Below are positions 6,271 to 16,555 of a stretch of DNA of 21,491 nt, one piece after another. This DNA is from an uncultured virus (IMG/VR IMGVR_UViG_3300049827_000124). Lineage: Duplodnaviria > Heunggongvirae > Uroviricota > Caudoviricetes. Under the pieces are notes generated by a model. That model was not told the DNA's origin, did no database searches, and saw only the letters and a list, made by a program, of their open reading frames with translations. The stretch lies in IMG/VR virus record IMGVR_UViG_3300049827_000124; one strand, written 5' to 3'. Positions within the stretch are counted from its first letter, which is position 1, and each line of letters begins with the position of its first letter. The translations under genes and the position numbers were made by a program.

Positions 6271-6819
6271 ATGAAAACTAATTTAATCTACTCTCTTTAC
6301 TGCCCCATTCATCACAAACCTGTTTATGTAGGTCAATCTAGTGTTGGTATGAACAGGCCATTCACACACATTAAAGAGAAATCTCACAGTGTTAAAGTTA
6401 ATGATTGGGTAAGACATCTTAAAGACCAAAACTTAGAACCAGTACTTGTAATACTAGAACATGACTTTGAAGACAAATATCTTAATGACAAAGAAAAGTT
6501 TTGGCTTAACAAGACTTTAAATGATGGACATCTTTTGTTAAACCAACAAGGGGTGTCTTCAGCATTTTATCAAGCAACCGAGTTTGATGTAGAACCTTCA
6601 ATTGATTTTCTTGCCGATATAAGACTGTATGTAAAAGGAAGAAGAAAATTACTAAAACTTACACAACCAGAGTTAGCAGCAAGGGCTGGTGTAGGATTAA
6701 GATTTGTGAGAGAACTAGAAAGTGGTAGCAAATCTAACTTCCAGACGGCATCTATAGAAAAAGTTCTTAGCTTATTAGGAAATGTTAAAATAAAAGTAGA
6801 ACCCCTTAATATTAGTTAG
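6271..6819 (+). CDS. GIY-YIG nuclease domain fused to an XRE (HipB/y4mF-like) HTH
   Basis: N-terminal IYSL...YVGQS...R-x-x-x-H...E...LLN. C-terminal RRKLLKLTQPELAARAGVGLRFVRELESG. Confidence 0.8.
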   Translation: MKTNLIYSLYCPIHHKPVYVGQSSVGMNRPFTHIKEKSHSVKVNDWVRHLKDQNLEPVLVILEHDFEDKYLNDKEKFWLNKTLNDGHLLLNQQGVSSAFYQATEFDVEPSIDFLADIRLYVKGRRKLLKLTQPELAARAGVGLRFVRELESGSKSNFQTASIEKVLSLLGNVKIKVEPLNIS

Positions 6820-7208: not shown

Positions 7209-7481
7209 ATGTCAGAAAAAATTACTGCTGCATCAGTCAGCCTTTGCTTTAAAGATAAAGCAATCTCAGGATTAATCCTTTCGTCCGTTGCCGCTTCTAT
7301 CGAAGATGTCAACGTAGACAAGAAATCAGGTACAATTACATTTACCGGATATGACTCACTCGACAAACAATTCGATGTCGAGAGAAAAGTATGTTTCGTT
7401 GGCTCGAAACATCCTAAATTCCAAGATATTCTTGCTGCCGCAAGAAAATCAGGAATTGTTACCAATGAATTGCCGGCCTAA
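7209..7481 (+). CDS. Hypothetical protein, first gene of the rightward accessory region
   Basis: 90 aa, A/T-rich leader, followed by a strong terminator. Confidence 0.75.
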   Translation: MSEKITAASVSLCFKDKAISGLILSSVAASIEDVNVDKKSGTITFTGYDSLDKQFDVERKVCFVGSKHPKFQDILAAARKSGIVTNELPA

Positions 7482-7487
7482 CGGCCA

Positions 7488-7512
7488 GGGGGACATTCGT
7501 CCCCCTTTTTTT
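7488..7512 (+). terminator. Intrinsic terminator
   Basis: GGGGGAC-ATTC-GTCCCCC followed by T7. Confidence 0.9.
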
Positions 7513-7684
7513 GAAAATTAATCTCTCGAGGCAGATCACGACACGTAGTAGTTGTAGACAAATCGGTGAGATAATTCTTGGTGACAAGGGTGTAAGTGAC
7601 TGAGTTCCAGGACACACACACCACATTCAAGGTCATTCGATTGATACCTCAAAATCAATCTATCAAACTATATAACACATTGTT

Positions 7685-7867
7685 ATGAAATACTTTCTAT
7701 TGACTATCATTATCATTGCTATGCTTGACAGCTTTGCATTGTTATATTTCTGCATCACATTACTTGAACCATCAGTATATGTACTATCATTTGTATCATT
7801 TGTTAGTGCCTTTACAGTATGGTTATTAGTATTCCACATCAAGGAATTAAGAGCCGGATCACGATAA
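7685..7867 (+). CDS. Small 2-TM membrane protein
   Basis: 60 aa with two hydrophobic segments and a basic C-terminus. Confidence 0.6.
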   Translation: MKYFLLTIIIIAMLDSFALLYFCITLLEPSVYVLSFVSFVSAFTVWLLVFHIKELRAGSR

Positions 7868-7973
7868 CATGTGAACCAAAGGGTTTAACTGTACCCATAG
7901 TAAACAGTTTACTTTCCAACAGCATTGAGGTCTGATTTGCCAAGCCAAGTCTTTCGACTGATATGTTGTTGGT

Positions 7974-8132
7974 TTGTATTAATGCATCATAACTTACTTC
8001 ACAAGGGTAAGCAATTATGATAATACTGATAACCACTCTTGAGACTAGAGATAAAATAGCTTAGACTAAGGGTTATATACACTTTCAATGTAGTGTAGTG
8101 GTATTATCATAATTGAATGCAGAGTGGTACAA
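7974..8132 (+). ncRNA. Twister self-cleaving ribozyme (type P1) with an extended P5
   Basis: P1 TTGTAT 7974-7979/GTACAA 8127-8132. U|AA cleavage site 7980-7982. P2 TGCA 7983-7986/8118-8121. P4 CTTAC/GTAAG with loop TTCACAAGG. T1 CAC 8000-8002/GTG 8124-8126. T2 TC 7987-7988/GG 8005-8006. Conserved GA 8122-8123. P5 is a perfect 15-bp stem, 8012-8026/8101-8115. Confidence 0.8.
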
Positions 8133-8230
8133 CAAAGGACTTTATCTATTGGACTTCATACAATAGAAGCTTTACAGTGAGGCTCAAACTGTTTGCAATA
8201 TAATTCATAAACTAAAATCATATAACGAAC

Positions 8231-8656
8231 ATGAAAGTAGTAATCAATGACTGTTATGGAGGCTTCGGTCTATCTGACGAAGTACTAAAGATGTATTTAG
8301 AAAGAAGTAATACACCTTATACAATCTATTATTCTGGACCCTGTGAACACCTTATAGTAGATGATCAACCTTTTACTGAAGATTCTATTGCAAGACATGA
8401 TCCTATCTTAATAGAAATCTTAGAAGAAGTAGGATGGGTTAAGAAAGGATTTGCAATTGTAGTTATTCCTGACTTTGCTAAGTATTCTATTGGTGAGTAT
8501 GATGGGAAAGAATGGATTGATAATACTTGGATCAACGTAACTGTTGATGAACTACGTGCTGGTCTTTCACAGGAAAAATTAGAACAGGCTAGTCAAGTAA
8601 ACTTTATTAAAGTAAATGTATTTAGTGAAGAGGAATTAGAACTTTACTTTAAATAA
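8231..8656 (+). CDS. Conserved phage protein of unknown function
   Basis: KVVINDCYGGFGLS...RHDP-x-LI...IPD...EYDG-x-EWI, a motif set I recall from many phage proteins. Confidence 0.8.
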   Translation: MKVVINDCYGGFGLSDEVLKMYLERSNTPYTIYYSGPCEHLIVDDQPFTEDSIARHDPILIEILEEVGWVKKGFAIVVIPDFAKYSIGEYDGKEWIDNTWINVTVDELRAGLSQEKLEQASQVNFIKVNVFSEEELELYFK

Positions 8657-9828: not shown

Positions 9829-10255
9829 TACTTCTGTGCAGAGCAGACCAAGGGTTGTAACCTTGCAGAAGTACTATAGGTTATCAGGTTCCTTTAATAT
9901 CTGATGAGTACTTGCCTCTTGTAAGTCTTACCCCGAACTGCCAACATCATAGGGAATTAGTAAGTAAGAAATGGTTTCTGTTGAGCCACAGATACAGCTC
10001 AACTTTGTCTATAAGACAGATCGGTAGACAAATGCAACGTAAGTTGCGGCCTATTTATGGAGGGGAATCTGGTAATCACTGTCATGATTACAAATCGGAT
10101 TGCTCTATGAAGTAATAGGTAATGTGTAGTATTTTTAATATTACATATTAGTACCAATTGTATCTCTACCAACATGTAGTAAAACTGTTTACAAGCAATG
10201 ATATGAGAGTTTTCTGATAATTTCTCTCGTATTGTTGCTTGTTTTTTACAGTTTT
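9829..10255 (+). ncRNA. Large multi-hairpin candidate non-coding RNA
   Basis: Nearly contiguous stems: 9881-9907, 9910-9926, 9927-9964, 9980-10003, 10004-10032, 10034-10047 (GTAA tetraloop), 10049-10120, 10121-10149, 10181-10255. Several contain G-U pairs that favour the plus strand. Confidence 0.65.
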
Positions 10256-12827: not shown

Positions 12828-13034
12828 ATGGGTTATATGAAGTGGGTAAAAGGCCTGATGGATACAGGTCGGCACACAATTCTTCGTGAGAAATACGACG
12901 AAGCAATTAAGTGTGAGTTTAAACGAATAGAATTTGACAATTCTAATCTTGATGTTAAATTTGTAGGTCACGTTCTTGATTTTATTGACAAGAATGATGA
13001 TGCTCATACAGCAACAAGACATGAAAAACTCTGA
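12828..13034 (+). CDS. Hypothetical protein
   Basis: 68 aa ORF overlapping the polymerase start. Confidence 0.65.
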   Translation: MGYMKWVKGLMDTGRHTILREKYDEAIKCEFKRIEFDNSNLDVKFVGHVLDFIDKNDDAHTATRHEKL

Positions 13035-14412
13035 TTCTATCTATGTAGTTAATGGTAAAGATAATCTCTTTGAATACCCATTGAACTCGTGTACAATGCA
13101 AGAATGTGTAGACTACTTACGATCAATTGATTTGATTGGGGTAGATACCGAGACCGAAGGTTTCGACTTCACAGGCAAACGATTGTTAATGATTCAATGT
13201 GGTGACAAAGGGAAACAGTTTATCATTGATTACAGAGTAACTAGTAAGCAAGAGATAGCATTGTTGAAATCTGTTTTAGAAGATGATTCTAAAATTAAGA
13301 TACTTCATAATGCTAAGTTTGATTACAAGTTCCTCAAGTTCTATTGTAATATCAGCCTCAATAATGTGTACGACACATTCTTGGTGGAGAAGATATTACA
13401 CTGTGGTAAAGACGATTATGGTTTTGCTCTTGGCAAGCTTACTCAAAGGTATTTAAACGTCACTCTCAATAAAGAAGTACGTAACAGATTCGTAGACCTT
13501 GGTAGTAATCCATTCACTGTTGATCAAATGGTGTATGGTGCTAAAGATGTAGAATATCTAATCGATATCTATCACAAACAACAGCCTGATATTGAGCTTA
13601 AGAGACTACGAAGTGTAGTTAGGCTTGAGAACGAAGCTGTTGTAGTTTTCTCTGAGATTGAGTATGAGGGATTAATCCTTGATACTGAAGCTTGGCAAAA
13701 ACTTGCTGTCAGAAACAAAGCCATGTCTATTCAGCTTGAGAAAGAGCTGGACAAGTCATTGGTTGCTGATGAAAGGTTTACGAAATACAAGGCACAAAAG
13801 CAGTTGGATATGTTTACTGCTGTAGAGGATTTGAAAGAGTCTACAGTTAAGTGGTCGTCCCCAACTCAAGTGTTAAAGATTTTCAGAACGTTAGTACCTG
13901 AGCTTGAGAATGCTAACGGTAAGAAGCTTGCACCTTATAGGTTTAAGCATACTCTTATCGATGAGTATATCAAGTACAAGGAGAAGGATAAGTTATCATC
14001 TGCATTTGGAGATAACTTCTACACATTCCTTAGTGCTGACAAGAAAGTTAGAACGAATTTCACACAAATCCTGGACACAGGTCGTGTTAGTAGTTCTGAG
14101 CCCAATATGCAACAAATTCCTGCTACTAACGAGTACAGAAATTGCTTTGTGGCTCCTGAAGGTTATGTGTTTGTATCTAGTGACTACTCATCACAAGAAT
14201 TAAATGTAATAGCATATGGATCTCAAGACCCTGTGTTTCTAAAAGCTCTCGAAAATAATGAAGACTTGCACTCGGTATGTGCAGAGTTAGTATTCGGAGA
14301 AGTATGGAAGAATGCAGCAGAAGAGGATTGTGCCTATTACAAAACGAAAGAGAAGTGTGACTGTAAAGCTCACAAGAAATTAAGAACTCAAGTTAAGACA
14401 ATCAATTTCGGT
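13021..14412 (+). CDS. polA: Family A DNA polymerase, exon 1 (3'-5' exonuclease and polymerase N-terminal part)
   Basis: ExoI VDTETEG, ExoII HNAKFD, ExoIII YGAKD, TGRVSS-x-x-PNMQQIP, motif A DYSSQEL, motif B truncated at RTQVKTINFG. Start re-called at ATG 13021. Confidence 0.92.
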
Positions 14413-14987
14413 TAAATTTTATTATCTTTGTCTTATGAAAAAAGATAGCCAGGCCGAAGTAAAAATCCGTAAATTCAGGGAACCCTCAGCACGTAACGGT
14501 GGTGGCAATCCTGAGCCAAGCCTTGAGAGTAAGGAAGGTGCAGAGACTAGACACGGATTATGTAAGAAATGCAATGAACCTATTCCGGTTCACAAATACA
14601 AAAATGCTAAATTTTGCAGCGACAAATGTAGAACTGCATTTGCTTCTCATAAATGGAGAGTTGAACATGGATTAATCAAAGTTCCTAATGTAGGATCTGG
14701 AGGTAATCAATGGGGAAAGGACAATCATCAGTACAAAACTGGTGTTGGTACTTATTCTAAAAAAGCTTTTGAACATTATGGGAAAATTTGTAATAGATGC
14801 TCTATTGAAAAGAACTTGTTAGTACATCACATAGATCATGACAGGTGTAATAATGATTTATCTAATTTAGAAGTTCTTTGTAAAAAGTGTCATCAGAATC
14901 ATCATTGCATCAGAGATGAAGAAGGAAAATTCATCTCACATACATAAAGGTATAGTCCAGGCACATAGGAAACTATGTGAATCCATG
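14413..14987 (+). mobile_element. Group I self-splicing intron (575 nt) in polA motif B
   Basis: 5' exon ends in U and intron ends in G; splicing restores KTINFG|LAYGMG. P AAATTCAGGGAA 14471, Q AATCCTGAGC 14507, R GTGCAGAGACTAGA 14538, S AAGGTATAGTCC 14947. P1 ATTTCGGT/GCCGAAGT with U-G pair. P9 CACATAG-GAAA-CTATGTG. Confidence 0.95.
14435..14947 (+). CDS. Intron-encoded HNH homing endonuclease
   Basis: CKKC...FCSDKC zinc finger, and CNRC...VHHIDHDRCNNDLSNLEVLCKKCHQNHH HNH domain. Confidence 0.9.
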   Translation: MKKDSQAEVKIRKFREPSARNGGGNPEPSLESKEGAETRHGLCKKCNEPIPVHKYKNAKFCSDKCRTAFASHKWRVEHGLIKVPNVGSGGNQWGKDNHQYKTGVGTYSKKAFEHYGKICNRCSIEKNLLVHHIDHDRCNNDLSNLEVLCKKCHQNHHCIRDEEGKFISHT

Positions 14988-15512
14988 TTGGCATATGGAA
15001 TGGGACCTAAGAAGTTATCTGAAACAATCAATTGCTCTACAAAAGAAGCAAAGGATTTGATTACTAAGTACTTCAAAGCCTTCCCTAAAATTGAGGCATT
15101 CTTAAATGGTCTTGGGGAGTTTGGAAAGAAACACGGTTACATTGAGACTTTCCCTCCATTCAGAAGGAAGAGGTGGTTTAACAGTTGGACTCCAAAGATG
15201 TACAGTGATAGAGATAGCTTTATGGAACTGGGATCAATTGAGAGAGCATCTAAGAACACACCGATTCAAGGTAGTTCAGCTGATATGACTAAGCTTGCAT
15301 TAGTTCTCATTTATAGGCATATTAAAAAGTACGACTTACCTGTTAAGATAATCATGACTGTTCATGATCAGATTGACACAGTTTGTCCAAGAGAATATGC
15401 TGAAGAATGGAAACAAAGAATGACTGAGCTTATGCAACAAGCAGCTGACACTGTTATTAAGAATGGATTGTTGAAAGCAGAAACATCAATCACTAATGTT
15501 TGGAGTAAATAA
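14988..15512 (+). CDS. polA: Family A DNA polymerase, exon 2
   Basis: LAYGMG, ERASKNTPIQGSSAD, motif C TVHDQI. Spliced product is 638 aa from ATG 13021. Confidence 0.92.
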   Translation: MAYGMGPKKLSETINCSTKEAKDLITKYFKAFPKIEAFLNGLGEFGKKHGYIETFPPFRRKRWFNSWTPKMYSDRDSFMELGSIERASKNTPIQGSSADMTKLALVLIYRHIKKYDLPVKIIMTVHDQIDTVCPREYAEEWKQRMTELMQQAADTVIKNGLLKAETSITNVWSK

Positions 15513-16387: not shown

Positions 16388-16555
16388 GTGAAAAAGTTAT
16401 TCATTCTTGCACTGCTGTTTGCTTCATGTAAGCAAGCCCCAGTAAACATTACAGTTCATTGTCCAGAAAAGGATACAACGAAACTGTTTGACTTAGAAAC
16501 TGTAGGTACTACAACAGACCCAACAGAAGAAGAACTTAATCAATTAAACAATTAA
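16388..16555 (+). CDS. Small lipoprotein (55 aa, not in ORF track)
   Basis: GTG start; MKKLFILALLFAS|CKQAPV... is a classic lipoprotein signal. Confidence 0.75.
   Translation: MKKLFILALLFASCKQAPVNITVHCPEKDTTKLFDLETVGTTTDPTEEELNQLNN

Follow-up and report, generated by a model that had tools for sequence, protein, structure and literature searches.

In the accounts of the twister class given in PMC5408937 and PMC6154101, stems P1, P2 and P4 are essential, and stems P0, P3 and P5 are optional, being present in 21%, 78% and 1% of the annotated twisters, respectively. The class rules described in PMC11662667 consist of cleavage at an "NA" step, a catalytic A and a catalytic G, an "NC" 5′ strand of the 2-bp pseudoknot and a complementary 3-bp pseudoknot. 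In the assays reported there, every tested twister with P5/L5 was cleaved above 0.80, and twisters carrying P0 averaged 0.40 cleaved versus 0.85 for those without it. Twister-sister RNAs, as described in PMC6154101, have a similar P4 loop and no double-pseudoknot fold. Self-cleavage by twisters is site-specific, is assisted by Mg2+ and leaves 2′,3′-cyclic phosphate and 5′-OH ends. In PMC6765202, self-cleaving ribozymes are reported to cluster near phage genes, and bacterial twisters and hammerheads are proposed to function in processing. Phage-related pistol and hammerhead ribozymes (PMC6765202, PMC4604425) occur in the same kind of neighbourhood as the RNA analyzed here and have been given a proposed role in the processing of polycistronic transcripts; their fold is a different one.

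The window, by which we mean the whole stretch of DNA analyzed (21,491 nt; IMG/VR record IMGVR_UViG_3300049827_000124), belongs to a phage that encodes helicases, a Sak4-like protein and a DNA polymerase interrupted by a group I intron, and the sequencing runs containing it are from freshwater. The polymerase is approximately 30–35% identical to its best matches, crAss-like phages among them. The intron was located at 14404-14631 (Rfam RF00028, 53.6 bits, E = 2.8e-11) within the polymerase gene. The ORFs on either side of it, 12976-14415 and 14916-15512, both matched PHROG DNA polymerase families, and a 170-aa ORF (14435-14947) is situated in or behind the intron. Farther upstream, a terminator scan detected a strong terminator (7487-7506) located 3′ of the plus-strand ORF 7209-7481. 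This terminator is followed, in order, by a 60-aa ORF, the P0 hairpin, the twister and the gene beginning at 8231 (gene 8231). The features of the region are as follows:

7685-7867, plus strand: small hydrophobic ORF of 60 aa from the ORF list, likely the upstream cistron
7916-7972, plus strand: P0 hairpin, the optional twister stem directly 5′ of P1, present in the minimum free energy (MFE) fold
7974-7979, plus strand: U-rich 5′ strand of P1, pairing with 8127-8132
7980-7982, plus strand: predicted cleavage step U7980/A7981 (general acid A7981), followed by A7982, in agreement with the class rule "NA"
7983-7988, plus strand: 5′ strand of P2 (7983-7986) and 5′ strand of the T2 pseudoknot (7987-7988)
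7993-8011, plus strand: P4 (7993-7997 with 8007-8011) and its loop L4 (7998-8006)
8012-8026, plus strand: 5′ strand of the 15-bp P5 stem, pairing perfectly with 8101-8115
8027-8100, plus strand: branched, lineage-specific 74-nt arm on P5, with local helices in the MFE fold
8101-8115, plus strand: 3′ strand of P5, pairing with 8012-8026
8118-8132, plus strand: catalytic 3′ strand, comprising the 3′ strand of P2 (8118-8121), G8122 (predicted general base), A8123, the 3′ strand of the T1 pseudoknot (8124-8126) and the 3′ strand of P1 (8127-8132)
8134-8230, plus strand: 3′ spacer specific to the lineage, containing a palindrome and two weak hairpins, and after it a short leader shared with the relative L003
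8231-8656, plus strand: downstream gene of 141 aa, matching phrog_16527 (no function assigned)
7902-7910, 8186-8194, 10182-10190, 13213-13221 and 16481-16489: copies of the palindrome AAAC-N-GTTT, the first two of which flank the ribozyme

An initial annotation of the window had described a twister ribozyme with a structured insert at this position. We read the pairs from the sequence and checked each of them by script. All of the twister elements that had been listed were recovered pair by pair, as were the perfect 15-bp P5 stem, its 74-nt insert and the three local helices named within the insert. P1 consists of five Watson–Crick pairs and one U-G pair, and P2 is formed by 7983-7986 with 8118-8121. 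The 9-nt L4 holds both the 5′ strand of T1 (8000-8002, pairing with 8124-8126) and the 3′ strand of T2 (8005-8006, pairing with 7987-7988, one pair being U-G), so that the double pseudoknot of L4 with T1 and T2 is present. The P4-type hairpin is unique in the window. U7980, A7981, A7982 and G8122, together with the two pseudoknots, agree with all of the class rules as given in PMC11662667. The MFE structure of 7916-8140 was exactly the nested twister fold, with mean pair probabilities of 0.93 for P1, 0.97 for P2, 0.99 for P4 and 0.996 for P5. The plus strand of 7890-8205 folded at −89.2 kcal/mol, compared with −66.3 ± 4.7 kcal/mol in shuffled sequences (z = −4.87, none of 100 as good), whereas the minus strand gave a z of −0.59, with 28 of 100 shuffles as good.

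Searches with Rfam did not return a twister family for the window at the gathering score, for 7600-8400 or L003 at E ≤ 10, for 20 related loci at E ≤ 1 or for 181 nt surrounding the twister of the compact relative L026 at E ≤ 10, and RF03160 alone at E ≤ 10 matched none of five records. The natural compact relatives L026 and L024, with arms of 19–27 nt, still gave no match when scanned with Rfam. The scores thus stayed below the RF03160 gathering threshold of 67.2 bits, which governs inclusion in the catalogue and does not define the fold. Comparative analysis, rather than the catalogue, is therefore the basis of the identification, and this phage twister subfamily is an uncatalogued one that escapes the Rfam models.

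In a blastn search, 7600-8300 did not match any deposited phage. When the RNA was searched by nhmmer against 23 loci, 22 of which lie around homologues of gene 8231, it matched only the phage itself (L001 and L002) and L003. The gene 8231 family as a whole is without the twister RNA, and among the 22 homologue loci L003 alone has it. The order gene, twister, gene on the same strand is also found in L003: its ORF at the position of the 60-aa ORF is 48% identical to that of the window over 56 aa (E = 2e-14), and its homologue of gene 8231 is 64% identical. Between L003 and the window, two pairs of P4 show compensatory changes, as do T1, where L003 has C-G in place of A-U, and P1. The P0 hairpin of L003 is 93% identical to that of the window, all four changes being in the apical loop, and its P5 arm is entirely unlike the window arm.

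A census of the family was made by regular-expression descriptors. This core motif scan fixed TAA, CATAA, TTC, CAAGG and CAA, and left P2, P4, the middle base of T1 in L4 and everything 3′ of P4 unconstrained; members differing in the fixed motifs escape it, and it is the descriptors themselves that impose the family-wide invariance of these motifs and of GA. It yielded 82 loci with 60 distinct sequences: 23 loci in viral contigs, 58 in metagenome contigs and one in a genome set of 185,579 species, the last being in a Bacteroidia MAG, where its contig measures 1.4 kb. The 60 distinct copies come from lake, river and other metagenomes. Stems of 14 types were counted for P4, which was fully paired in 58 of the 60 distinct members, and a 3′ strand of P2 followed by GA was present in 54. 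Three of the remaining six are contigs that end early. The other three, L041, L092 and L103, have an intact 5′ core with no P2 3′ strand and GA within 271–330 nt, and they may be decayed copies or have arms that exceed the search span. T1 covaried in 53 of the 54 members, the free L4 base being C with GGG in 31 and A with GTG in 22. The sole mismatch, A in L4 versus TGG, was found in L035 (691-874).

We then aligned the 19 distinct members from viral contigs. Over the full structure, including both pseudoknots, 92.5% of the cells in this alignment were paired, compared with 79.0% in shuffles; 17 of the 31 pairs changed on both sides, and none of 500 shuffles attained any of the five measures. 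When the partners were slid by 1–3 columns as a control, just 28–46% of the cells paired. All seven columns of P1 varied on both sides, with 75% of the cells paired, and both-side changes were found at all five pairs of P4. P2 was 100% paired, with one pair divided into CG:16 and UA:3, and the P5 pairs were 94–98% paired. T2 was also 100% paired (UG:13/CG:6), its G-G side being fixed by the search pattern. G-U pairs were kept both at T2 (UG:13) and at P1 (UG:10). From this covariation in the relatives, the twister part of the structure exceeds chance. The placement of a twister-architecture RNA on the plus strand, in the leader of gene 8231, is thus backed by covariation across 54–60 relatives and by the synteny in L003, and we consider that the stretch between the two genes very probably encodes a genuine self-cleaving twister.

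The RNA resembles twisters of type P1 (Roth et al. 2014, reviewed in PMC5408937 and PMC6154101; see also PMC11662667) in the order P0-P1-P2-P4-P5 and in the two pseudoknots formed from L4. P0 lies 5′ of P1 and P5 lies between P4 and the 3′ strand of P2, in the positions of the optional stems, and the pairing of the class stems is observed both in the window and, for P4, P2 and P1, across the family. Further likenesses are the U-A cleavage step with A-A, the G directly 3′ of the P2 3′ strand, the "NC" 5′ strand of the 2-bp pseudoknot, and the phage genes and other ribozymes nearby. The subfamily differs from the known twisters in that neither RF03160 nor any other Rfam model detects it, in that P5 occurs in all 54 members whose 3′ half was located, versus 1% of annotated twisters (PMC6154101), in that the P5 arms, 19–140 nt long, are of 41 unrelated types, and in that it is essentially limited to phage and metagenome contigs. 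Assignment to twister-sister was excluded by the presence of both pseudoknots and by the T1 covariation, and there was no Rfam twister-sister match. The L4 of canonical twisters is 8 nt long, compared with 9 nt in the subfamily, and the 2-bp pseudoknot of GG with YC is also a departure from the canonical form. We therefore file the RNA, by its architecture, as a putative twister of a variant subfamily with a 9-nt L4, a GG/YC pseudoknot and a universal P5 that is missed by Rfam. A screen of the literature by titles and abstracts found no publication that describes a twister subfamily of phages in which the P5 arms vary.

Several loci of the family carry further elements. L049 (minus strand, about 1560-1040) has a tandem arrangement in which a family twister is followed by an isolated hairpin with a P5-like stem (CAATTGTAAC/GTTACAATTG) and by a second twister-like unit with approximately 110 nt inserted in the P4/L4 region and a T1 of CCA:TGG. 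The 3′ half of L035 resembles the 3′ half of this second L049 twister, and L035 looks like a recombinant of, or a deletion between, two tandem twisters. Pistol ribozymes (Rfam RF02679, 46–52 bits; gathering score 34.5) were found at approximately 330 nt or less from the twisters in three of the 20 loci scanned (L035 385-447, L038 989-1051 on the minus strand, and L041 280-342), which fits the clustering of ribozymes reported in PMC6765202. In L045, a tRNA gene with a long variable arm (1043-1127, 58 bits) is located approximately 210 nt 3′ of the twister.

The initial annotation had also nested the ribozyme in an outer domain of about 300 nt, closed by 7900-7910/8186-8196 and containing further hairpins. 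The 11-bp pairing exists and is part of the MFE fold. Both of its arms, however, are copies of the palindrome AAAC-N-GTTT and as two copies of one palindrome they are complementary automatically. Five copies of this palindrome occur in the window versus 0.83 expected, and none of 100 shuffles reached five. L003, the only syntenic relative, has neither the outer stem nor the hairpins at 8145-8184. Contigs from three RNA libraries (X19, X20 and X22), with matches that begin at 8004, 8007 and 8019, follow the window to 8132 at 99–100% identity and then continue in unlike sequence, and X21 covers 7682-7885 only; contigs are uninformative as to the ends, the strand and the expression of an RNA. The absence in L003 and the divergence of the contigs after 8132 indicate that the conserved unit ends at P1, and they do not support the outer domain as a real feature. 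As a site on DNA, AAAC-N-GTTT could serve to bind a protein, such as the HTH protein whose gene is at 6271-6819.

The other hairpin assigned to the outer domain, 7916-7972, is present in L003 as well. Because P0 is described as optional in the class (PMC5408937, PMC11662667), we identify this hairpin as the known optional stem P0 and not as part of an outer domain. P0-like hairpins ending at most 8 nt from the cleavage U were found in 42 of the 54 family members. Given the lower cleavage of twisters with P0 in the assays of PMC11662667, cutting at this locus may be partial. The terminator scan marked P0 together with the U-rich P1 strand in two of the three relatives tried (L041 and L046, and not L034) and left the P0 of the window unmarked; P0 and the U-rich strand acting as an intrinsic terminator is a possibility.

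Downstream of P1, the window and L003 are organized differently. The distance from the end of P1 to the ATG of the gene 8231 homologue is only 26 nt in L003, which leaves scant space for a separate promoter, so that the L003 gene must be transcribed through the ribozyme. The window sequence 8134-8184 has no counterpart in L003, and the alignment resumes from approximately 8185 towards the ATG; by blastn, nothing similar to the spacer 8134-8230 was found in loci other than L003. A short A-rich leader (CAT-N-AACTAAAAT) is kept before the ATG in the window (8205-8230) and in L003 (2976-3000), without a motif resembling a Shine-Dalgarno sequence in either. This leader, the crAss-like polymerase matches and the match in a Bacteroidia MAG weakly suggest a host of the Bacteroidota type. 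A perfect TATAAT is located at 8199-8204, 27 nt 5′ of the ATG at 8231 and just past the palindrome 8186-8194. It escaped the promoter scan, as there is no −35 element at 16–18 nt, and nothing resembling it was seen in L003; it may represent an own promoter or operator of gene 8231 in this phage. Sigma-70-like promoters predicted within the ribozyme (7998-8027 and 8039-8067) were rejected as being at chance level (18 found versus 14.9 expected).

The arm on P5 was proposed in the initial annotation to be a conformational or ligand-dependent switch. According to this explanation, the arm would sense a ligand, a protein or temperature, and ACCACTCT (8032-8039) would block T1, P1 and the G8122 site until its release. 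The exact complementarity of ACCACTCT to 8121-8128 on which the proposal was built is present. Its length exceeds that of the complement in 299 of 300 shuffles of the window arm (199 of 200 in another run), the isolated duplex is worth −12.9 kcal/mol, and the arm and the 3′ strand recur together beside a different 3′ flank in the three RNA libraries mentioned above. However, of the 52 members whose arms measure 20 nt or more, only one has an 8-nt complement; in the remainder it extends over 3–6 nt, as in shuffles, and approximately 0.17 such outliers are expected across 52 tests. A fold in which 8032-8039 was made to pair with 8121-8128 was 10.3 kcal/mol less stable than that of the ribozyme, and the probability of this pairing at equilibrium is 8e-8. 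In the presence of P5, the pairing would create a pseudoknot that has to extend back alongside the 15-bp helix, and the 8-mer overlaps the ATAACC/GGTTAT stem of the arm, which is transcribed ahead of the catalytic strand. Conservation of the insert across related phages, which a shared sensor domain would entail, was not observed: the arms of the 54 members fell into 41 unrelated clusters, in which the window arm is a singleton without a similar arm, and blastn of 8016-8089 (four fifths of the arm and part of P5) against the window and L001-L053 found copies of this phage only. L066 has a 32-nt core and a P1 identical to those of the window and carries a different P0, P5 arm and flanks, whereas L027 and L036 share an arm type and differ in P4, T1 and P1, as do L033 and L070; arm type and core type vary independently. 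The fold energy of the window arm is unremarkable (z = −1.29), and since this arm has no variants its internal helices are beyond the reach of covariation. Among 17 arms longer than 10 nt, three had a z below −3 and most folded no better than shuffles. No Rfam aptamer matched the arms, either in the window region or in the 20 related loci. Considering the single occurrence among 52 members, the energetic cost, the absence of an aptamer match and the cleavage of the P5-bearing twisters tested in PMC11662667, we regard a switch as very improbable. A natural ligand-switched twister is not supported, and the 74-nt arm is better described as a fast-changing add-on than as a conserved switch. In the arm variants L043 and L112, the inner stem is preserved through a compensatory C-G to U-A change, so the arms are folded RNA, though without a common domain.

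Engineered twister riboswitches have aptamers grafted on peripheral stems through a designed communication module. They resemble the window in carrying a large foreign domain on a peripheral twister stem and differ in being designed, a natural counterpart of which the window does not show. The pair of a c-di-GMP-II aptamer and a group I intron is ligand-dependent and has a conserved ligand-binding domain, unlike the window arm. The glmS RNA, as treated in PMC6765202, is likewise a self-processing mRNA-leader RNA with an extra structured domain; its domain is conserved and binds a ligand, whereas that of the window is confined to a single lineage and is unconserved in the family.

As a whole, the data are best explained by a twister of type P1 with P0 and P5, belonging to the subfamily undetected by Rfam, that cuts the plus-strand operon mRNA and carries a non-regulatory arm, a reading to which we assign a probability of roughly 0.75. 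What the analysis shows is the fold and its covariation, the synteny and how variable the arms are; the cleavage, and its effect on the stability or translation of the two mRNA halves, we infer. The stretch 7916-8132 would be transcribed from the plus strand as part of an operon, between the gene for the 60-aa membrane protein (7685-7867) and gene 8231, the first gene of the replication module. Completion of the 3′ strand (8118-8132) would allow the double-pseudoknot core to form, and self-cleavage would follow at U7980/A7981. This would leave an upstream mRNA that ends with the P0 hairpin and a 2′,3′-cyclic phosphate, and a downstream mRNA that starts with a 5′-OH and a very stable folded cap consisting of the ribozyme body with the 15-bp P5. 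The 74-nt P5 arm would be a tolerated, rapidly exchanged peripheral addition and no regulatory domain. Judged from sequence, the division of the operon mRNA between the small membrane-protein gene and gene 8231 is thus the most likely function.

A different role for the cut, also raised in the initial annotation, is conceivable, namely the maturation of a stable non-coding RNA of approximately 150–250 nt (7981 to about 8132-8200) whose 5′ end is generated by the twister; the arm would be its cargo and the mRNA context would be secondary. The compensatory change in the L043/L112 arm stem and the separate movement of arms and cores (L027/L036, L033/L070) are compatible with this, as are the P5-like hairpin standing free between the two twisters of L049 and the surroundings of the 19 distinct viral loci other than that of the window: three of these (L024, L032 and L034) have no plus-strand ORF of at least 45 aa within 500 nt downstream, and in further ones the nearest downstream ORF begins 190–310 nt away. 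It is nevertheless unlikely, because the L003 twister adjoins a gene start, the arms have no sequence or shape in common and seldom fold better than shuffles, and a single cut leaves the arm unreleased. We consider it slightly less probable again that the arms are exchangeable cargo RNAs, such as protein-binding or anti-defence decoys, displayed on a self-processing, nuclease-resistant twister scaffold; recombination at the base of P5, where the sequence is conserved, would shuffle them among phages, and in this phage the 8-mer would also tune the rate of cutting. An explanation that dispenses with RNA altogether, in which the inverted repeats are operators or recombination sites on DNA or occur by chance, could draw on the enrichment of AAAC-N-GTTT in the window, on the two copies of it that flank the region and on the palindrome CAATTG at the P5 base of many members. 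The strand asymmetry of folding and the maintained G-U pairs of T2 and P1 speak against it, and the T1 pseudoknot covariation is inexplicable at the DNA level; we therefore hold this explanation to be highly implausible.

The catalytic principle of the mRNA-cutting twister that we favor would not be new, since twister is a well-known ribozyme class. The failure of Rfam to detect a subfamily with 60 distinct copies means that ribozyme censuses of viromes undercount twisters. In addition, the universal P5, on which 41 types of arm are swapped between otherwise identical cores, represents a natural experiment on the cargo tolerance of twisters, and the diversity of these arms is useful to those who graft aptamers on ribozymes. 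Finally, the conserved layout of gene, P0, twister and gene provides a concrete case for the question of what role self-cleaving ribozymes have in phages.
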